From: a virus
Strand: one strand, 5' to 3'
IMG/VR virus record: IMGVR_UViG_3300037454_000906
Span: 160,001 to 224,000 of that record
Length of the DNA: 64,000 bases
The position numbers and the translations under genes are program-made. The notes under the pieces were generated by a model, which worked only from the letters and a program-made list of their open reading frames with translations, was not told where the DNA came from and ran no database searches. This document shows positions 20,186-55,746 of this stretch, piece by piece (the first letter of the stretch is position 1; every line of letters starts with the position of its first letter).

Positions 20186-20980
20186 CTATGGCCTCTCTGG
20201 CAAGAATGTCGACCAGTCCTCAAAGGTGAACGGGTGCAACGTATCCAGCTTGCGTTCGCCGGGGTTCATGCTATCCGCATCAAGTGTTGATGCATGCAGA
20301 AGGCCATCGTATATCTCCACATTCGTCGTGACTATATGGTTGTCCTTGCTACTGTACGATGCCAGCCCGAACAGTTTCTCGTTCGGGATGTACGCATCAT
20401 ATTCCTTTTCCGGCTTCCACCACCCATTCTCCATGCATTCTTCAACGCGGCGGATATATGTACGTATCCGGTTGGTCGACAGCACATTGTGGATAGGGAA
20501 GGTGCGGTTGTCAGGGCAGTCGCTGCACGTAATCCGTATTCGCACGTTCTTGGCCAGTCCCCTGCGCACCATCTCCTTGGTGGCATACCAGTACATGTTG
20601 GCAAACAGCATTTCCGGCTCGTCCGTAAGCAGATACCGGTCGATTTCCCTCTTCACGTTACCGAAGCTGTCCGTGAACATCGAATCGCAGTGCAGGTCAT
20701 CCAAGCTGAAATTGGCATAGGCGCTGAACAGGTGAAGCGCCTTGTTGGATCGGTAGGGCACCCTACCGATTTCGAACACGTCGCTCACTTCCATCAATCC
20801 AGTTTCCTCACGCAGTTCCCTCATGGCGGCCTCGAGAGGTTCCTCGCCGGCCTCGATGTGCCCTTTCGGAATATCCCACGAATGCCGGTCGGCACAAGCA
20901 TGCCCGGTAGGATGGGATACCAGGAGACGGTCAGATCCTCTCTGGAATATTATGAACCCGGCACTTACTTCCTTGGGCAT
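20186..20980 (-). CDS. Nudix hydrolase with C-terminal extra domain
   Basis: SAGFII...WDIPKGHIEAGEEPLEAAMRELREETGL Nudix box. Confidence 0.9.
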   Translation of the reverse strand: MPKEVSAGFIIFQRGSDRLLVSHPTGHACADRHSWDIPKGHIEAGEEPLEAAMRELREETGLMEVSDVFEIGRVPYRSNKALHLFSAYANFSLDDLHCDSMFTDSFGNVKREIDRYLLTDEPEMLFANMYWYATKEMVRRGLAKNVRIRITCSDCPDNRTFPIHNVLSTNRIRTYIRRVEECMENGWWKPEKEYDAYIPNEKLFGLASYSSKDNHIVTTNVEIYDGLLHASTLDADSMNPGERKLDTLHPFTFEDWSTFLPERP

Positions 20981-21960
20981 CAGATTTCATCTCCCGTGTT
21001 GGAAGTCTCGTTTGGCATAATTATTTCCGGCAACTCATCCTTCTTGAGTAGGTCATTGGGGGCGTGCAGGTTGACGTGGAACTCGGCTATTTCCGACCGT
21101 ATGACGGTAAGGTCCGGGTTTCTCCTGGCTTCGTGAAGAGCCGGGAGCCGTTCGATTTCCTCCGCAGTAAACTTACGCCTGAGCAACTTGCGCTTAAAGT
21201 AAAATCCGACTATCTGGGGAGCAGTGTATTTGGACCAGAACCTGATTCCCTTATCTTCAATCATCTTCAGCTTCTCGTCTGAGTTCTTGTTCAGTAGGGC
21301 CTTGTGGGAGTACAGCGATTGGGCAACTGCAGAGATGGCGTTTCTTGTCGCATCCCTCTCTCGCCATAGCTGGTAATAGTTGACCAGGTTGTCATCGGGA
21401 ATCCCGAAGGCGCGCCCGTCGAATGCAGGGAGCTTGGATAATTTCTTGCCGGTGCTATCCTCATATGACCTGATGAACGAGGCCGTCGCCACAGAAGCGG
21501 CCAGGGAAGCCAGCTTGTGCGCCTTTCGCCCGTAGTCAAGCGATTCCTTGGGGAGCACGATAGTTATCTCGTCCGACTGGGTATACCCGTAAAGTGCAGG
21601 GAAGAACTCGATGAGACTCTTGGTCGCATCGTGCATCGCCTTCTGCATGTTCTCGTCGAACGGCTTCGCCATTTTCTTGGTGAACGTGTGGAATGTGTGG
21701 CCGTCCACACGGATGACCGGGTACATGCCATCCGGGATCACGGTATAGCCGTTGTAATATGGCCAACCAACTCTGATCCGGCAGCAACCCCTTGTGTTCG
21801 CGGGATGCCCGGCGCCGGTAAAATCGCCTTCAATGTCCTTGAAAAAATCGGCGATTGGTACTTTCTGTATCTCCTCACCAGACTTTTTATCGGCAACGAC
21901 CTTCGCTGAACCGTCATTTGTAAAATTAAATTTTCGTTTTATCCATTCAAACATTGACAT
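20980..21960 (-). CDS. Thg1-like tRNA(His) guanylyltransferase / 3'-5' nucleotidyltransferase
   Basis: VIRVDGHTFHTFT...YGYTQSDEITIV...GRKAHKLASLAAS...AFDGRAF...WRERDATRNAI. Confidence 0.9.
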   Translation of the reverse strand: MSMFEWIKRKFNFTNDGSAKVVADKKSGEEIQKVPIADFFKDIEGDFTGAGHPANTRGCCRIRVGWPYYNGYTVIPDGMYPVIRVDGHTFHTFTKKMAKPFDENMQKAMHDATKSLIEFFPALYGYTQSDEITIVLPKESLDYGRKAHKLASLAASVATASFIRSYEDSTGKKLSKLPAFDGRAFGIPDDNLVNYYQLWRERDATRNAISAVAQSLYSHKALLNKNSDEKLKMIEDKGIRFWSKYTAPQIVGFYFKRKLLRRKFTAEEIERLPALHEARRNPDLTVIRSEIAEFHVNLHAPNDLLKKDELPEIIMPNETSNTGDEI

Positions 21961-21963
21961 ATC

Positions 21964-22269
21964 CTATAATCCATGGTATTTCAGCACCTTGCCCAACGCA
22001 TCCTTCAGATCATTGATGACGGCGAGGTTGGCATTTTGGTACGTTTCCCATAACTGCGCTATCTCGAGGTCACAGAGCATTTCGTACACGGGGTTGTTGT
22101 CCGTGCAGTCACCTTTCTCGACTATGCTCCTCATTTCTGAGCATGCGCTTTCGATTGCATCGAGTCCAGAGTTTGCCGAAGTCTCATAATCGGGCATCGC
22201 CGCGCGTATTTCGCCGACGTATCCCTCAATGTCCTGAATGTAGGACTCTATTTCTTCATTTGTTGACAT
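21964..22269 (-). CDS. Hypothetical acidic protein
   Basis: Start MSTNEE, 6 nt after -10 TATATT; -35 TTGCCA (22305-22300). Confidence 0.7.
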   Translation of the reverse strand: MSTNEEIESYIQDIEGYVGEIRAAMPDYETSANSGLDAIESACSEMRSIVEKGDCTDNNPVYEMLCDLEIAQLWETYQNANLAVINDLKDALGKVLKYHGL

Positions 22270-22327
22270 ACACAAAATATAGCTAATTTTTTCAGATTTT
22301 GGCAATTTGCCTTGAAAAATTTCCGAT

Positions 22328-22520
22328 ACGCTCGCCGCCGGATATGAACTACCCACCGGCTAAAGACCGGTGGGTTTCGGTAACCACCGGTGCAACCAGT
22401 TGAATTTCCCGCATCACAGCACCGCTGCTTTTTAGGTCACAAAGACGTTCATCCACAGTTGGGTTCTCCGCAAGGCATAGCGGTCGCAAGACCACGGCTT
22501 CCCCGGTTCGCGGGGTACCT
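22328..22520 (-). ncRNA. Predicted omegaRNA of TnpB 1 (scaffold plus flanking guide ATCCGGCGGCGAGCG...)
   Basis: Established TnpB biology: reRNA overlaps the ORF 3' end and right end; structured tail present; limits approximate. Confidence 0.6.
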
Positions 22521-23620
22521 TCGTTATCTAGTATTCTAAATCCTTCATCAAGTATGTTCTTGGCAGCATTCCAATCTCTATCTACTAGGCTACCGCAGTC
22601 TGGACATATCCACGCCCTTTCGCTAAGTTTCAATGTATGGTATCTATGCCCGCAGTTGTTGCATAGTTGCGAACTGGGGAAGAACCGTCCTACCTTAACG
22701 ACCGTACGGTTATGCCATTGAGCTTTGTACTCTATCATCTTAGTTAGTGTACCGAGTGCCTGATTGGCCAACGCGCCAGCAAGACAGTGGTTCTTCTGCA
22801 TTCCCTTTATGTTAAGGTTCTCCATACAGATTATGTCATAGTCACGAACTAGCCTGTGTGATACTTGATGAAGGAAGTTATTCCTTCTGTTACCCAGTTT
22901 TTCATGGGCTGTGACAAGTTGAATACGGACTTTCTCGTATCGACTGCCGCCTTTCTTCGCCTTTGCGAGTTTCCTCTGCAAATGCCTAATCTTTCGTTCC
23001 GACTTCTGTTCAAAGTGCGGATTCTTAATTACTTCTCCGTTGGACATCACGATGGACGACTTGATACCGAGGTCGATGCCCACACATTCACCGGTATGCA
23101 ACATCTCAGGTTCATCAACATCACAGCATATTGAGCAATAATAGTCGCCTTTCTTGCTTTTCTTGATTGTAACATTGTAAATTTTAACGATGTTTTCGTG
23201 TTCGAATGTCTTACCGAATCGACACTTGACTGCGCCAACTTTCGGCAGTACAATGGAATTGCCAACAATTAGTTTCTTAATATCCTTGTGGCACATAGCA
23301 TTACGGTAACTCTGTTTGTCCTTCTTGGACTTGTATCTCGGATACTTGGATTTGCCGGTAAAGAAGTTCTGGTAGGCTTGGTTCATATCCATATAGGCAT
23401 TAGCCAATCCTTGTGAGTCAGCCTCCTTCAACCATTCCCATTCTTCCTTAAACGACTTCAATTTCGGCTGGAAAGACATCTTGGTCTCTTCGTAGATATA
23501 TGACTTAATTTTAAGGCACTGGTTATACACAAAACGACAGCAACCGAAGGTCTTTGCAAAGAATACCTTCTGCGCCTTGTTCGGATATAGCTTGATTTCG
23601 ATGCCTTTTTTAACTATCAT
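22349..23620 (-). CDS. tnpB: TnpB RNA-guided endonuclease
   Basis: IKLYPN..Q...FGCCRFVYN; RuvC GIDLG / MENL / DRDWNAAKNI intact; CNNCG...CPDCG zinc finger. Confidence 0.95.
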   Translation of the reverse strand: MIVKKGIEIKLYPNKAQKVFFAKTFGCCRFVYNQCLKIKSYIYEETKMSFQPKLKSFKEEWEWLKEADSQGLANAYMDMNQAYQNFFTGKSKYPRYKSKKDKQSYRNAMCHKDIKKLIVGNSIVLPKVGAVKCRFGKTFEHENIVKIYNVTIKKSKKGDYYCSICCDVDEPEMLHTGECVGIDLGIKSSIVMSNGEVIKNPHFEQKSERKIRHLQRKLAKAKKGGSRYEKVRIQLVTAHEKLGNRRNNFLHQVSHRLVRDYDIICMENLNIKGMQKNHCLAGALANQALGTLTKMIEYKAQWHNRTVVKVGRFFPSSQLCNNCGHRYHTLKLSERAWICPDCGSLVDRDWNAAKNILDEGFRILDNEGTPRTGEAVVLRPLCLAENPTVDERLCDLKSSGAVMREIQLVAPVVTETHRSLAGG

Positions 23621-23622
23621 AC

Positions 23623-23723
23623 AAAAATCCTACCGGAACTGGTCCTTCCGGTAGGATACAATGTACCTAAGTACATTTTAAACTCTTCTACGACGGCAAG
23701 GACCAGTTGCCTTCGTATATCAG
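23623..23723 (-). ncRNA. Structured leader RNA with three hairpins; loops of H1 and H3 complementary
   Basis: H1 23717-23689 loop CUGGUCC; H2 23677-23660; H3 23657-23627 (12-bp perfect stem) loop GGACCAG plus U-run; promoter TTGACG-17-TACATA and TATAAACT upstream. Confidence 0.7.
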
Positions 23724-23835
23724 TTTATATATGTAGCAAAATTTCCGAAAATCGTCAAGCGGCTTTCATCTCACCCACTAAAGATGGGTGAGTTTTCTCG
23801 CCGCCACATTATAAACTGCTACCCGAGGTACCCCA

Positions 23836-24309
23836 ATGACCAACGAATATACACAAGAACTGGACAGCATGGGCACACGGAGTGGACTAACTCTGCTGAC
23901 CGAGGCAATCAAGAGCGCATATATCGCCCTGCTCGAATCCGAGCAGGCGCCCGGTGAACCCGCATCCCCCGACAGTACACCCCCGCTCCCCGATGGCGGG
24001 GTGTACGTTAGCCCCGACGGCAGTGAGGTGCTCGGGCTTATCTGGTCCGACAACAGCGACAACATCGATGACGAGGACTGGGACCAGGGGTATAACTGCT
24101 ACACGATCGCCGACCGGTATCGTGTCAAGGAAGGGTTTGACCCTTCCCAGCTCCCGTGCGATCCGGCTGAGCTCGATGGGGCCCATGAACTGGAACTTAC
24201 CGAGAACATGACGCAGTTCCTGTACAAAAGGAATTCGTTGCCATCCGAGGAGGATGCGCTCGACGCGTATTACGCCGCGGGGTGGAAGAAGTTGCCATGT
24301 GGCCAGTAG
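23836..24309 (+). CDS. Putative late/internal head protein with N-terminal propeptide motif
   Basis: Late promoter TATAAACT 23810-23817, SD GAGG; LDSM...LLTEAIKSAYIALLES. Confidence 0.65.
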   Translation: MTNEYTQELDSMGTRSGLTLLTEAIKSAYIALLESEQAPGEPASPDSTPPLPDGGVYVSPDGSEVLGLIWSDNSDNIDDEDWDQGYNCYTIADRYRVKEGFDPSQLPCDPAELDGAHELELTENMTQFLYKRNSLPSEEDALDAYYAAGWKKLPCGQ

Positions 24310-24319
24310 TGGGTGAGCC

Positions 24320-24961
24320 ATGTACGACTATCGCATAGACAAAACCATCGACCAATTGGACCCGGTTCCATCGGAGTCATGGAGTTCGGACCAGGTAGAT
24401 GCATTCTTTGATTCGGCATTGGTGCCTGTAGCGGGAATAACCCCGCAGGGCTCTTACAGGACGTTCAATAATTCGTTTAAGTCGATAATCGAACGTTATA
24501 CGCCGATGTTCACGCCAAAACTTCCCGTGTTTATTGGCAATTCGGGTAGTTCACCGACCTCCCCGACCAACAATACGGCGACTTTTGGAATCACCAAGGT
24601 GTCAAGCGAAGGGGATGCCATTTTCCTCCAGTCCAATGTCTTGAAGGTGAAACCGGGGTGGTATCATGTCGATGCGGTAGCCACAGTAAACTTTTCGGGC
24701 ACCGCGTCGAATACTATTGTTCCGGTAACATTCAACCTTGAACTCGATGGCGCGGAAGTATGCTCCGACGCCATTCAGTTTGACTATTCGTATCCCAGCA
24801 ATTCGGCTACCCTACATCTGCATGGCATTACGGTAAATTCGGGAACCGATGCAGCATCGTTGGTATTTAAAGTTACGGGATTGCTTGACGGGTCCACGGC
24901 GACATTGAATCACGCGGCCCTCTTCCAGGTCAGGCCAATTGACACCGCAGCGGCCCAATAG
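24320..24961 (+). CDS. Putative virion protein with C-terminal beta-sandwich (C1q/BclA-like)
   Basis: VLKVKPGWYHVDAVATVNF beta-rich pattern; co-transcribed late gene. Confidence 0.55.
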   Translation: MYDYRIDKTIDQLDPVPSESWSSDQVDAFFDSALVPVAGITPQGSYRTFNNSFKSIIERYTPMFTPKLPVFIGNSGSSPTSPTNNTATFGITKVSSEGDAIFLQSNVLKVKPGWYHVDAVATVNFSGTASNTIVPVTFNLELDGAEVCSDAIQFDYSYPSNSATLHLHGITVNSGTDAASLVFKVTGLLDGSTATLNHAALFQVRPIDTAAAQ

Positions 24962-25103
24962 TCCTTACATATGAACTACCCACCGGCTAAAGACCGGTGG
25001 GTTTCGGTTCCCACCGTTACCAGTGATGCTTCCTGCTCAAGACAGCTATTGCTGCCAGTATCAACAGGCTTAACCTCTAAGGTTCCCCCAGTCCCTGGGG
25101 TAC
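24955..25103 (-). ncRNA. Predicted omegaRNA of TnpB 2 (guide ATGTAAGGACTATTGG...)
   Basis: Position at right end; structured tail; limits approximate. Confidence 0.55.
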
Positions 25104-26202
25104 TTGAATTGTTAAGACGACGACCTTCAACGAGTATGTTGAGGGCTGAGTTCTCGTCCCTGTCCAGCGGTTCTCCACATACAGGGCAAGTCCACTTGCG
25201 GTCTTCGAGAGTAAGTTCGTCGTTCTTGAAATGACACTTGTGACATAGCTTCGTGGACGGGAAGAACATACTTACCTTCAAGTAGGTCCTTCCATACCAT
25301 GCCGCCTTGTATTCCACCTTGTCCAGGAACGAGCTCCACGCAGCATCCGCAATGGATTTCGCCAGCTTGTGGTTCTTCATGAGGTTCCTGACTTTCAGGT
25401 CCTCGGAGTAGATGCATTGGTTTTCTGCAACTAGCTGCCAGGAGACCTTGTGCTGAAAGTCGTTCCGCTGGTTTTTAATCTTCTCATGCACCAATGCCAC
25501 TCGCAACTGCTGCTTTTTGTAGTTGTTCGAGCCCTTGGTGCGGTGGCTTAATTTCCTCTGTTCCTTCGCAAGGCTTTCTTGCGATTTATTAAAATACTTC
25601 GGATTTTCGATAACACATCCATCGGAATCCACAAGGAAATCTTTTAGTCCTAAATCAAATGCAATGTCGTTGGCCGTATGTGGTAGTGAGTTCGGTTCTT
25701 CCACTTCGCAGCATATCGAACAAAAATACTTTCCTGTCGGAGTCTTCTTTATTGTTATGTTCCAGACTTTAATGATGCCTATATTGTTGAAATCATATCC
25801 CTGACGGAATGTGACTGGACCTGCTTTCGGGATGATTATCTTGTTGCCGACCACCAGTTCTTTGATGTCAGAATGCATCATCGCATTACGATAGCTCTGC
25901 TTATCAGTTTTCTTCTTGTATTTCGGATATCCGGTCCTTCCGGAGAAGAAATTCTGGTAAGCAGTATTCATGTCCATGTAGGCATTTGCCAGTCCTTGAG
26001 AATCGGCTTCCTTCAACCACGGCCACTCCTCCTTGAACGAGCGGAGATTTGGTTTGAAGTTCATGTATGTCTCTTCGTATATACAGGACTTCATCCATAG
26101 GCAGTGGTTGTACACAAAACGACAGCACCCGAACGTCTTGTTGAAAAACGTCCGCTGTTCTTGATTAGGATATAGTCGTATCTCAAATGCCTTCTTTATC
26201 AT
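24976..26202 (-). CDS. tnpB: TnpB RNA-guided endonuclease
   Basis: EIRLYPNQEQ...FGCCRFVYN; RuvC AFDLG / SEDL / DRDENSALNI; CHKC...CPVC. Confidence 0.95.
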   Translation of the reverse strand: MIKKAFEIRLYPNQEQRTFFNKTFGCCRFVYNHCLWMKSCIYEETYMNFKPNLRSFKEEWPWLKEADSQGLANAYMDMNTAYQNFFSGRTGYPKYKKKTDKQSYRNAMMHSDIKELVVGNKIIIPKAGPVTFRQGYDFNNIGIIKVWNITIKKTPTGKYFCSICCEVEEPNSLPHTANDIAFDLGLKDFLVDSDGCVIENPKYFNKSQESLAKEQRKLSHRTKGSNNYKKQQLRVALVHEKIKNQRNDFQHKVSWQLVAENQCIYSEDLKVRNLMKNHKLAKSIADAAWSSFLDKVEYKAAWYGRTYLKVSMFFPSTKLCHKCHFKNDELTLEDRKWTCPVCGEPLDRDENSALNILVEGRRLNNSSTPGTGGTLEVKPVDTGSNSCLEQEASLVTVGTETHRSLAGG

Positions 26203-26215
26203 ACTATTATACAGT

Positions 26216-26368
26216 CTATAACCACAATAGTAAACACACTAAAATAATAGGTGCGCTAATTATTGGTATCATATACCAATGTAATTTCATATCATCTTGA
26301 TTAATGGCATGGCTATGTGAGTTTTGACCGAATATGAATCCTATCATAAATGCTATGTAATTATCCAT
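26216..26368 (-). CDS. Unannotated 50-aa hydrophobic passenger peptide inside IS
   Basis: Manual read MDNYIAFMIGFIFGQNSHSHAINQDDMKLHWYMIPIISAPIILVCLLLWL*; stop 13 nt before tnpB ATG; open frame across very AT-rich DNA. Confidence 0.55.
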   Translation of the reverse strand: MDNYIAFMIGFIFGQNSHSHAINQDDMKLHWYMIPIISAPIILVCLLLWL

Positions 26369-26384
26369 ATATGATGCCTATATA

Positions 26385-26488
26385 CAAAATGACCCCGATG
26401 CGACAATACTGCGGAACCTTGTACGCACCGGAGCCGAAATTGCTATCTTTGTATAGATGATGGAAGGTTCCGCCAGTCCTCATCTACT
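26385..26488 (-). ncRNA. Structured leader RNA 2 with complementary H1/H3 loops
   Basis: H1 26486-26454 loop CUGGCGGAACCU; H3 26433-26393 loop GGUUCCGCAGUA; promoter TTGCAT(26523-26518)-17-TATAAA(26500-26495). Confidence 0.6.
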
Positions 26489-26517
26489 CATAAGTTTATA
26501 GCATCAACATAGAAATT

Positions 26518-26928
26518 ATGCAATACAAATCCAAGAACCATACCAAATTTTTGTTGCAATATCATATCATTTTCGTTTCAAAGTACCGTAGAGGCATATT
26601 TTCCAATGAAATGGTACGGGAACGAACCAAACAAGTGATGTTGGACATTGCCGAAAGGTATGATTTTAGCATCCAAACACAGGAAATCGACCCGAACAAA
26701 CCTGACCACTGGCATGGATTGATATTGAGTACACCAAATCTGTCTCCATCACAGATAGTCCGTGTACTCAAACAGGAGTCCAACCACAGGTTATGGTTAG
26801 AATTTGAGCAATATCTTCGGTACTTTTATTGGCATGACAATTTGCTATGGACTAGGGGATATTTCGTAGCGTCAATCGGAAATGCATCGGCAGATACCAT
26901 TCAAGCCTATATTGATGCGCAAGGTTAA
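26518..26928 (+). CDS. tnpA: IS200-like Y1 (HUH) transposase
   Basis: LQYHIIFVSKYRR, DHWH (HUH), LWTRGYFVASIG, IQAYIDAQ (catalytic Tyr). Confidence 0.95.
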   Translation: MQYKSKNHTKFLLQYHIIFVSKYRRGIFSNEMVRERTKQVMLDIAERYDFSIQTQEIDPNKPDHWHGLILSTPNLSPSQIVRVLKQESNHRLWLEFEQYLRYFYWHDNLLWTRGYFVASIGNASADTIQAYIDAQG

Positions 26929-26990
26929 TCCCCAGGCCTCTCATCTCACCCACTAAAGATGAGTGCGTTTTCTCGGCCCATATTATAACG

Positions 26991-27015
26991 AAAAACGGCG
27001 ATTTCTCGCCGTTTT
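26991..27015. terminator. Bidirectional intrinsic terminator
   Basis: AAAACGGCG-6-CGCCGTTTT between convergent units. Confidence 0.8.
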
Positions 27016-27016
27016 G

Positions 27017-30000
27017 CTACCATATGAACTCGACACGCAGCCAGTAATCATTAAATGAACCGGCTGAACCATGCACATTATCAGAAATTTCGTACCGAAT
27101 ATACCGTTCGCCGCGCTCAATGATACGGAAGAAATCTGGATCATCAGAGTATTTTTCTTCCTGGGGTTCACCACCATAAATAGTGATGATACTCAAATAC
27201 GGCATGCCATCCACCAGTTTAAGTCCAGTAACTTCAACCGGTTCGGGTATCGGCGTATCTCGCCCCATTTCATGGAATAGTTCAATTTTCTCCCCGTTTT
27301 TTTGGACTGCGTATATGCTACTTGGTGAGTCAACATCCTTATTTTCAACCGTAAACTTGAACGCCCGGGGTTCGGGAGACAGGTTCGTTGCGGGTAGCCG
27401 GTAAACCGGGTTCGCGTTTTGGATCTGGTCCTTTCTCGGAAAATCGAACTGACCCCAGAGGACCGCATCGCCCATGGTGCCACCCGCACGATCATGTACC
27501 CATGCGCCATCATGGTAAGCGACGGCGGGCACGTCGGAACCACGCGCCACCGATGTCGCCGGACGCAAGTGCTTGCGCATGGCCCAGAAACTTGCATGGG
27601 CCTTGCTTGCCCAGGCGCTCTCATTCGACTCACTCAATATATTGCCGCCGTTCACGTCATACGGGGCCACGATGCCCAGGCCGCCGGAAGGTATGGGGAG
27701 ATACGGCTTAGCCAACCGCGGGATCGCAACTTCGCTGGTGGGCAGGTCAGTATTGTTTTCCAATTCAACCTTGTCGCTGGCCGGCATGTTCGAAATGAGC
27801 TTCGGTATGATACTCGGGTTGATGTCCATCGGCGGATATTTGTAGTACGGGTGCATCAGGACATCTTGCCAGCCACGGTTTGGTGGGCATATCGATTCCG
27901 TCCATACACGTACGCCATCAATCTTCGCTTCGAGGGCGTTCGCTCCATATAGCGGGGTCAAGTACGACATCGGGGTCTGTATGTAATCGACCGTGTACCA
28001 ACGCCCCGCGCTTGCCGAGAATTTGAACTTCATGTATACGCGAATGTAGCCGCTGGGGCCCGCGAATATACCGGTGCCATTGAATATGCTATACCAATCA
28101 CGGGTCACCTTAACGGGCGGTTCGCTCCAGTTCGTGACCGACGGGATTCCATCATCGTCACGCATCGACGCGTAGTGGATATTGGAATCGATTCCCGACC
28201 ACTGTGCGCTGGTGGACCTGGATATGAAATTATCCCGAACGATTGCATCGCGAACCGTGGGATCAAGACCACTCAATCCATCGCAGTCATCTTCGCCGCA
28301 GCATTCCGTCTCCGGCCAAATGATTCTAGTGGAATCTATTAACTTGATATGCCGCCATACCGGATCGGTCACGTCCCCTTCCGGATACATCAGCCCGGAT
28401 TGCGAAATGCCGGTGCGGGTGCTATCCCAGAACCTGGTGGGCATGTGTCCGCCGTATGGGGCGACCATCGATCTCAGTAGCTTCGTTAACGCAGTCGATT
28501 TAGGCACGCCATCTATGAATGGCAAATTATACGACACGAAGTATATGTTCAGGATTTTTTCCCATTCGGTGTCGTAGCCCATGATTTTTGCGCGTTGGGT
28601 CACATACAATCCTTCGATGTACCCAAGATACGTAGCCATCGCATCGCCCGAAATCAGCGGCAGCATTTGGGGATTTGTTTTCCCAAGATATTCCAGCAAA
28701 TCCTGATTCAAAGTAGCGCTTCCCGGAGACGGTATTGTATCTACGGAGAATACGTTGGCCGTGGCCGAATAGATATCCTTCCACATCTCGGACTCGGATG
28801 CACCGATCAAATTTGCATATGGCTCGGTGATGTCAAAGTCACCACCAGGTGCCCAATCTTTCAGGCCAGTAATCTGAAGCTCGGCAACACGGCACGCGTC
28901 CCGGAACAGCTCATGCCGAACTGCATCAGAATCGCTTTCAATGCGGGCATTTATTACACTACGGTACCCGAACATTTCCTTAGGCCATGCGGCCAGCTTG
29001 TAATCACACGGGATCGGTGTTGCGGACGCGCTTGTCCAATATTCGCCATTCCCGTAGATGTTTTCCGAATACCGTGCGCCCACTTCGCCATCTACAAACG
29101 GATCGGCGCCTACGATGGAATTTCCGTCGGCGTATTGGTCTTGCCCCGACGCGCGGATATAGTCAGGCAAATGCCTTGCCTTGATTTGCCATGCTGCGCC
29201 CGCCAACTTGTTATTGATTACCTCATCGGTAGGTTCGCCACTCGCCCTGGTCCACCCGCTTAGGAAGATGTCATGGAGGGAGCCAGGATATTCCGGGTTG
29301 GTGCCCATTCGAGAACTTCTCGAGATCCCCGGTATCTTCTTGTACTCTCTGGCCAGACGCATCTTGCGGAAATCACTTGCCAGCATTTCCACCGCTTTCC
29401 TGGCCTGGCGCACCGGATTACTTGCCGCGTCACGGTAGCTTCCGCTGCCATCGGGAATCCGGATGCGCAGCTGGGAACCGACCAGGGACTTCTCCGCGCC
29501 GGAATTTTTCCGGGCATACACGAGCGGCATCGTATCGGCGGTAAATCCGTAGCCGTTCTGCCCGCCGCCCACGTCGCCATACCCGAAGAACCCGACCGTA
29601 TCGTTGAAGTCGATTATCTTCTTGTTCTCATGCCATATCATCGAGGATACGGAATGTTCCCCGAGGTCCCACTCGTCCGTCATCAGACGTTCCAGGTGGC
29701 GCATCTTGTGCCTGCCGACAATCGCCCACGGGAACGTATTCGTGGTAGTCGGGTAGACCGTGGCCACTACACGGCGACCGTCATCCACCAACGCCATGCG
29801 GCCAGTGTCGGAAAACGTTGGGGAAAGAATCTTGTTGTATCGACCGATTCCATTGCCTTCGCCCATGTCACTGGACCCAAGCGTGGTCTCGTTGCGGGTG
29901 TGGAGGCCCATCAAAGTCGACGTGCCCGTACCATAGAGCCGATTTGTTTCGCAGTCATCATTCGGATCAAGGTAAGCGACGCCGCAGATACGCATGCACC

Positions 30001-55604: not shown

Positions 55605-55746
55605 TTCGAACCTCTTTGATTACGGTTGCAGTTTATATCCGGCGGGGCTACCTGAAACCCCGCCAGTCGTTCTCATCGAACAGGCTCTTGCCAGTGAAGA
55701 ACCCGATTACGAGGAACAAAACGGTAGCCCCGAACGAATACATGTC

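Follow-up and report, generated by a model that had tools for sequence, protein, structure and literature searches.

A kissing-loop contact conserved in the leader of a phage-borne tnpB gene and its possible role as a co-transcriptional gate

The window analyzed here (64 kb, bases 160001-224000 of the source record, a 253-kb phage genome) carries two insertion elements 2.6 kb apart (Table 1). Element 1 is a tnpB-only IS200/IS605 element, IS1341-like: its product possesses three TnpB domains, matched subterminal hairpins are present at both ends, and a Y1 TnpA is available, its source being element 2, a complete IS605-type element. In the relatives of element 1 the sequence is common from the TTTAT target onward and the flanks diverge upstream of TTTAT; therefore, the left boundary of the element was placed at about 23810, after this target. 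Between the left-end hairpin and the tnpB start lies the leader with which this work is concerned. Just downstream of element 1 there is a gene (20980-21960, minus strand) for a protein with a Thg1-like tRNA-His guanylyltransferase domain (Pfam PF04446).

Table 1. Features of the two elements and of the element 1 leader (positions within the window)
Feature	Position	Strand	Description
tnpB, element 1	22349-23620	-	423 aa; Pfam HTH_OrfB_IS605, OrfB_IS605, Cas12f1-like_TNB
Right-end hairpin	22342-22389	-	ACCCACCGG-UCUUUAG-CCGGUGGGU; overlaps tnpB stop; 96% identity to element 2 at 24969-25016
Left-end hairpin, TnpA type	23770-23792	-	CUCACCCA-UCUUUAG-UGGGUGAG; common to element 2 and relatives
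Candidate promoter, sigma-70-like	23730-23758	-	TTGACG, 17-nt spacer, (TG)C-TACATA; read from sequence
Promoter-like motif	23722-23729	-	TATAAACT; 5 nt upstream of H1; putative function
H1	23690-23716	-	ACGAAGGCAA-CUGGUCC-UUGCCGUCGU, i.e., ACGA-A-GGCAA / loop CUGGUCC / UUGCC-G-UCGU; -10.0 kcal/mol
H1 loop	23700-23706	-	CUGGUCC; pairs with H3 loop; 7 loop-loop pairs, covariation
Alternative helix, 5' strand	23688-23708	-	H1 loop, 3' arm and AG; 18 standard pairs, -22.4 kcal/mol
H2	23661-23676	-	AUGUAC-UUAG-GUACAU; 6 pairs
H3	23627-23657	-	AUCCUACCGGAA-GGACCAG-UUCCGGUAGGAU; 12-bp stem, -19.8 kcal/mol; terminator-like, AGGA in 3' arm
H3 loop	23639-23645	-	GGACCAG; pairs with H1 loop; no counter-example among matching leaders
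Alternative helix, 3' strand	23637-23654	-	H3 5' arm, loop and UU; 18 standard pairs; folding of nascent RNA
AGGA, Shine-Dalgarno-like	23628-23631	-	7 nt before tnpB AUG (23620); pairs with UCCU in H3
U-run after H3	23621-23627	-	UUUUUGU; sequence and terminator scan; tnpB AUG next, at 23620
tnpB, element 2	24976-26202		
Leader, element 2	26380-26492	-	Same plan, unrelated sequence; GCGGAACCUU in H1 loop, AAGGUUCCGC in 21-nt H3 loop, then U-run
Y1 tnpA, element 2	26518-26928	+	Divergent from element 2 leader

As a whole, the leader of element 1 folds far better than its shuffled versions (z = -5.4 with RNA parameters) into three hairpins, H1, H2 and H3. The terminator scan lists H3 with 12 pairs (6 G-C), a 7-nt loop, a T-run and the tail TTTTGTATGA, so that the G+C-rich stem, the short loop and the adjoining U-run by which intrinsic terminators are recognized in sequence are all found in it. 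[quoted passage not shown]

Two promoter-like signals precede H1. The motif TATAAACT occurs 10 times in the window versus 0.8 expected, including positions 23722-23729, 23810-23817, 26493-26500 and 55630-55637, the third of these sites lying 8 nt upstream of H1 in the leader of element 2; related leaders possess TATAAAC or its close variant (TATAAGC, TATAAAT) at the corresponding position. TATAAACT is probably a phage or host promoter element. As for the second, sigma-70-like candidate, its TTGAC is invariant in the close family. A different box, TTGCTA(C/T)ATTT(T/G)G, resembling the Bacteroidota -7 box (TAnnTTTG), stands directly before the ATG of the genes at 353, 5768 and 14705, and the leader of element 1 carries a related sequence, TTGCTACAT. 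On the plus strand, a sigma-70-like TTGATT-17-TATCAT was detected at 23592-23620, and the left-end hairpin (23770-23792) is terminator-like in this orientation; an antisense RNA starting at the plus-strand site could extend across H3, H2 and H1 to that hairpin. Read in reverse complement, the hexamers of the site are conserved codons; leader L145 lacks them.

The AUG within H2 opens a 19-codon frame (23617-23675, minus strand) ending at a UGA that overlaps the tnpB AUG (AUGA). Most relatives have an extra C that places the AUG of H2 in the tnpB frame; in L011 an early stop interrupts the frame. Attenuation by a leader peptide was considered and rejected, since this sole upstream frame is not conserved; as regards a sensor of an attenuator, neither a conserved upstream frame nor conserved loop bases were found in the leaders. 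Just upstream of H1, ACUGAUAUACG (23714-23724) complements the start-codon region (23612-23624) at 9 of 10 positions, and the extra C of most relatives would add a G:C pair. Such pairing would close a four-way junction only in RNAs starting upstream of approximately 23724, and a fold-back block acting on read-through transcripts is a possible interpretation of it.

Relatives of the leader were gathered in four ways, namely by a TnpB protein search, an H3-stem pattern, a covariance model and a generic scan for complementary loops. The 7-bp pairing of the H1 loop with the H3 loop turned out to be fully complementary in every bona fide leader found, and no bona fide leader lacking the loop match was present among those collected. 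At least 13 distinct loop pairs occur in at least 6 lineages, among them that of a Paludibacteraceae MAG and, unrelated in sequence, the leader of element 2. The close family, with TnpB proteins 72-96% identical, contains the pairs CUGGUCC/GGACCAG, CUCGCAC/GUGCGAG, CUGGUAC/GUACCAG and CUAGCCC/GGGCUAG; the Paludibacteraceae MAG (TnpB 41-48% identical) contributes CUGGCAC/GUGCCAG and GUCACGG/CCGUGAC, and eight further pairs come from other IMG/VR phage contigs. Complete loop complementarity was also observed in leaders L166, L173, L175, L176, L177, L178, L192, L186 and L191 and in element 2. When 13 sequences representing 5 loop types were aligned, all seven loop-loop pairs proved to be intact in 13/13 sequences (100%), with covariation at 3 columns; the score observed was reached by no shuffle.

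H1, H2 and H3 each show covariation in the same alignment: in the H1 stem G:C is replaced by A:U at columns 35:55, with G:U wobbles in addition, and in H2 four of the six pairs are changed on both sides among the relatives. The H3 stem is invariant within the close family and is replaced by other stems in L145, L166 and L173, while the U-run 3' of H3 is kept in all lineages but L173. A third site complementary to either loop, e.g., in the region of the omega-RNA, was sought within the element, and neither such a site nor a third covarying one was found. Taken together, these comparisons establish that the RNA leader preceding tnpB, with its three hairpins, is real and that the H1 and H3 loops always pair in it, and they point to the 7-bp Watson-Crick contact of these loops as the element under clear selection; the conserved core, as judged from the alignments, is this contact joining a 5' hairpin with a terminator-like hairpin.

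Since G:U pairs occur in the stems, the structured strand is the sense strand. This bears on a conceivable role in DNA, with the hairpins and their loop contact arising in the single-stranded intermediate of transposition and taking part in excision or integration by TnpA. IS200/IS605 elements do move as single-stranded DNA, and with DNA parameters the leader also folds well (z = -6.1); but the hairpins of the TnpA type are located elsewhere (23792-23770 and 22342-22389), the stems include the G:U pairs, and a function as RNA is in keeping with the conservation of the U-run and with the location of the leader, which has a promoter motif on one side and a start codon on the other. We consider a role in DNA extremely unlikely.

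The Rfam scan of positions 21500-27500 (E <= 1) gave nothing relevant, with a weak STnc320 match elsewhere only; blastn of the leader against GenBank phages gave no match; and a literature search for TnpB in combination with kissing, or with left end or leader, terminator or hairpin, retrieved nothing on such a leader. Within the scope of these searches, the kissing leader is described by no Rfam family or paper. An IStron or group I intron was rejected as an identity for the locus, finding no support in Rfam. Model R1 detects one copy in the window's own genome and, among 151 genomes of the order to which the MAG belongs, is present in the Paludibacteraceae MAG alone. That bacterial genome (G001) contains four leader copies, L163-L166, with three loop codes; in one of them, L147 (= L164), the H1 stem is damaged and the loops still match, and the tnpB frame of L165 is interrupted after 67 codons.

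Different loop sequences in co-resident elements (elements 1 and 2 in the window, three types in one MAG) are what would be expected if leaders acted in trans, a terminated leader or an antisense RNA from the plus-strand site targeting the nascent leaders of other copies, with the loops as the address and copy-number control as the result, on the model of pT181, ColE1 and IS10 RNA-OUT. The promoter-like site and the terminator-like hairpin on the plus strand agree with such action, as does a burst of loop changes in one lineage (L005/L006), where 6 of 14 loop positions changed versus 7 of 103 elsewhere (p = 0.001). Yet other pairs display no excess of loop changes (0/14 versus 20/103 for the window compared with L127), both loops are already occupied intramolecularly, and the antisense hexamers merely mirror conserved codons and are missing in L145. 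Trans action thus seems very unlikely to us. Uniform hypervariability of the loops was discarded as well, the excess being confined to the L005/L006 lineage.

Masking of the SD is much less constant than the loop contact. The AGGA belongs to a UCCUA/UAGGA stem base kept in many lineages, with an AGGA-AUG spacing of 7-14 nt among the relatives; L173 has no AGGA, L186 and L191 possess a separate SD (GGAGG) downstream of the H3 terminator, and in element 2 about 180 nt separate H3 from the tnpB AUG downstream of it. An SD-sequestering arrangement is, consequently, not conserved among the relatives. The first-pass annotation had proposed that refolding frees the SD arm to switch TnpB on; in the window such release depends on the 5' end of the RNA in the foldings described below, and with the separate SD of L186 and L191 and the distant AUG of element 2 it cannot be the general purpose. 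With the U-run kept and the SD masking variable, a terminator function fits the family better than SD control. About half of the phage's genes carry a clear SD, so that the masking may still matter in the element 1 copy. On these comparisons, we regard SD release as a local feature and not as the purpose of the leader family.

In the leader of element 2, where the common plan is realized in an unrelated sequence, the loop match is 10 bp long and is formed without involvement of the H3 arm. No close relatives of the element 2 TnpB were found in IMG/VR from which covariation of this leader could be assessed. The same leader runs antisense to what is presumed to be the 5' region of tnpA, a divergent gene (26518, plus strand), and could act on that gene as well.

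The first-pass annotation had also put forward an 18-bp helix with two bulges, formed by positions 23708-23688 with 23654-23637, and a bistable attenuator in which kissing nucleates the strand exchange between this helix and the hairpins. All 18 pairs are indeed standard, in the order of 11 contiguous pairs, a G bulge, CCG:CGG, a UC bulge and GUAG:CUAC, and the helix has an energy of -22.4 kcal/mol alone and -27.3 kcal/mol together with H2. The sum of H1, H2 and H3 is -35.4 kcal/mol, i.e., 8 kcal/mol better, in a comparison that includes no kissing or pseudoknot term; the 7-bp loop duplex, -11.3 kcal/mol when calculated as a bimolecular duplex, adds a term favoring the three-hairpin state only. 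The complete leader is, therefore, not bistable in this comparison, and this part of the proposal is not supported. The best full-length folds retaining the loop-loop helix lie 0.2-3.4 kcal/mol from the minimum free energy (MFE) structure. When the RNA begins at 23724 or 23718, these folds are 0.2-2.1 kcal/mol from the MFE and both the SD arm and the AUG region are re-paired, the freed 3' arm forming a small UCC/GGA hairpin and the AUG region pairing with the 5' end; when it begins at 23716, the freed SD arm remains unpaired at a cost of 3.4 kcal/mol above the MFE. Hence, release of the SD depends on the start point of the RNA.

The order of folding gives a different picture from the equilibrium of the complete leader. 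The alternative helix excludes both H1 and H3, in the way the 2:3 pairing of an attenuator excludes the 1:2 and 3:4 pairings. In the nascent RNA, the alternative helix is the MFE structure only as long as the exposed 3' end is at 23640-23630 (up to -34 versus -20 kcal/mol), and when 19 related leaders were cut behind the H3 loop it was again the MFE in 18, so that the 2:3 helix is favored before segment 4 exists, as an attenuator demands. MFE calculations on truncated RNAs thus support this part of the original proposal. Starting from H1, refolding into the alternative helix along a nested path without a kissing contact has to overcome a barrier of 12 kcal/mol and takes longer than the fraction of a second at hand, which leaves loop-loop nucleation as the only plausible fast route. 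Nucleation of the exchange by kissing is, in this respect, physically sensible. The alternative helix looks like a brief folding intermediate and not a second stable state.

On these grounds, we tentatively interpret the leader as a kissing-loop-gated co-transcriptional attenuator, i.e., a kinetic gate rather than an equilibrium two-state switch. Of the components of this interpretation, the structures, their energies, the covariation of the loops and the MFE folding order were computed here; that H3 terminates transcription, that the contact spreads and in which direction expression is affected are what we infer. The leader RNA would start, to judge from the motifs only, a few bases upstream of H1 and fold as H1, H2 and H3, with H3 and its U-run serving as an intrinsic terminator just before tnpB and, in this lineage, burying the AGGA too. 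H1 would be prefolded by the time the 5' arm and the loop of H3 emerge, and its loop would catch the nascent H3 loop. In a fraction of the molecules the contact would then spread to the 3' arm of H1 and the 5' arm of H3, resulting in the 18-bp helix; terminator closure would be delayed, and polymerases would read through, with the SD arm briefly free. In the others, and finally in all, H1 and H3 would be closed with their loops kissing, and the RNA would be terminated or translationally shut. The net outcome would be a low, tuned expression of TnpB. Against the gate it must be said that the kissing contact could equally stabilize the terminated state. Moreover, by our own estimate the kissing state with intact H1 is about as stable in the nascent RNA as the alternative helix, so that spreading of the contact is without a clear driving force.

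The arms, as distinct from the loops, were compared as well. The outer 7 pairs of the alternative helix show no covariation and no compensatory change. The H3 5' arm is unchanged throughout the close family, while the H1 3' arm has undergone six kinds of substitution, three of which are kept as wobbles and three break pairs, as expected under neutrality; one change of this arm is truly compensated within H1 (G:C to A:U). In L145, L147 and L165 the closing pairs are flipped, so that the loop helix meets mismatches on both sides and cannot extend directly, although beyond the flipped pairs L145 has six more pairs after a one-base bulge, versus little in L147. When the H3 5' arm was shuffled, 3% of the shuffles matched the real alternative fold of the window (p = 0.03), with p = 0.01 for L176, 0.03 for L186, 0.05-0.3 for most other leaders and 0.88 for element 2 (overall range 0.01-0.9); the values, combined by hand over those lineages that we regard as independent, give p of about 0.02. 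Arm complementarity, which counts in favor of the gate, is thus only modestly above chance. In a test with swapped arms, the window's own arm outperformed 10 of 11 foreign ones, and L173 and L176 likewise did better with their own arms than with any foreign arm; element 2, L177 and L178 showed no effect, and with a hand-combined p of about 0.1 the preference for the own arm is only suggestive. The H3 arm of L145 is nearly an exact match, in complementary form, to the 3' side of H1 in L166, L177 and L178, which indicates that the H1 and H3 stems are inverted-repeat relatives; their complementarity may, consequently, be in part a legacy of an inverted duplication rather than a product of selection. 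At most, the long alternative helix is a transient intermediate.

A rival to the gate is a static fold, in which H1 and H3 are always closed, their loops kiss, and the 18-bp helix is a by-product of the kinship of the inverted repeats that is never populated. The compact shape would strengthen termination and masking of the start and might protect the terminated leader RNA of about 95 nt from decay. The energy advantage of the three hairpins before kissing, to which the loop duplex is added, covariation confined to the loops, the flipped closing pairs, the loop pairing of element 2 that excludes the H3 arm, and the signs of common descent of the stems all speak for it. On the other hand, most lineages have arms whose complementarity somewhat exceeds that of shuffles, nascent RNA has the alternative fold as its MFE structure, and constant termination with constant masking would leave no obvious route to TnpB. 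The static fold is doubtful in our opinion, yet it deserves serious consideration.

It can also be supposed that the kiss alone acts as an anti-terminator, capture by the H1 loop posing a steric or topological obstacle to the closure of H3 without any arm exchange. Loop pairing is, with H3 and the U-run, the sole universal feature of the leaders; such a mechanism would work also in the leaders whose arms play no part, namely element 2, L186 and L191, and the guanidine-IV riboswitch considered below provides a precedent. Nevertheless, fully paired 7-nt loops exist alongside closed stems elsewhere, as in the inverted loops of ColE1 RNA I and RNA II, so the kiss may not block a 12-bp stem, and conserved loop bases of the ligand-binding type are lacking here. 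This explanation appears unlikely.

The most far-reaching version of the gate would be a ligand-free, self-addressed one, in which a rewritable 7-nt loop code nucleates the anti-terminator helix and the leaders of co-resident copies recognize or ignore one another. We hold it to be distinctly unlikely; if true, it would mean private expression control for each transposon copy, like plasmid incompatibility groups. Almost nothing has been published on how TnpB expression is set, and a conserved leader coupling a programmable loop-loop contact to a terminator would represent a new, compact and ligand-free throttle on a selfish nuclease; kissing leaders would also supply ready-made orthogonal RNA parts. 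For element 1 itself, the value of the present analysis is that the model has been narrowed, with the kiss emerging as the selected element.

A close likeness in layout is the guanidine-IV (mepA) riboswitch, in which the loop of a 5' hairpin kisses the terminator loop and hinders the terminator stem, resulting in read-through, and the contact competes with completion of that stem within a narrow transcription window, as the tnpB leader would do (PMC11611296). The tnpB leader differs in that its loops form a full 7-bp Watson-Crick helix with freely changing letters, in that it has neither conserved ligand-binding bases nor an Rfam match and implies no ligand, and in that the regulated gene encodes a transposon nuclease. 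A precedent within the family for combining a terminator with SD masking is the left end and 5'UTR of IS200 tnpA, where an antisense RNA is present as well (PMC4513863). IS200, however, has its terminator apart from the SD hairpin, lacks a loop-loop contact and regulates tnpA; in the tnpB leader, one hairpin does both jobs, kiss-coupled to H1, and SD masking is not family-wide.

Mutually exclusive 1:2, 2:3 and 3:4 helices, with 3:4 as the terminator, make the leader similar to four-segment attenuators. In the antisense-driven attenuation of pT181 and pIP501, loop-loop kissing picks the winning fold and the loop sequence determines specificity. Unlike all these systems, the tnpB leader has no leader peptide, trans RNA or sensor that could be seen, and its 2:3 helix is weakly supported outside the loops. 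Finally, in phage T4 the ribosome-binding sites of homing-endonuclease and late genes (I-TevI, e, soc) are sequestered by a hairpin, and a late promoter situated inside this hairpin yields late RNA devoid of one arm. The likeness to I-TevI is that of a selfish phage nuclease gene silenced by a hairpin at its start region with a late-promoter motif nearby; in the tnpB leader, since TATAAACT lies upstream of H1, both H1 and H3 should be complete, unlike in T4.
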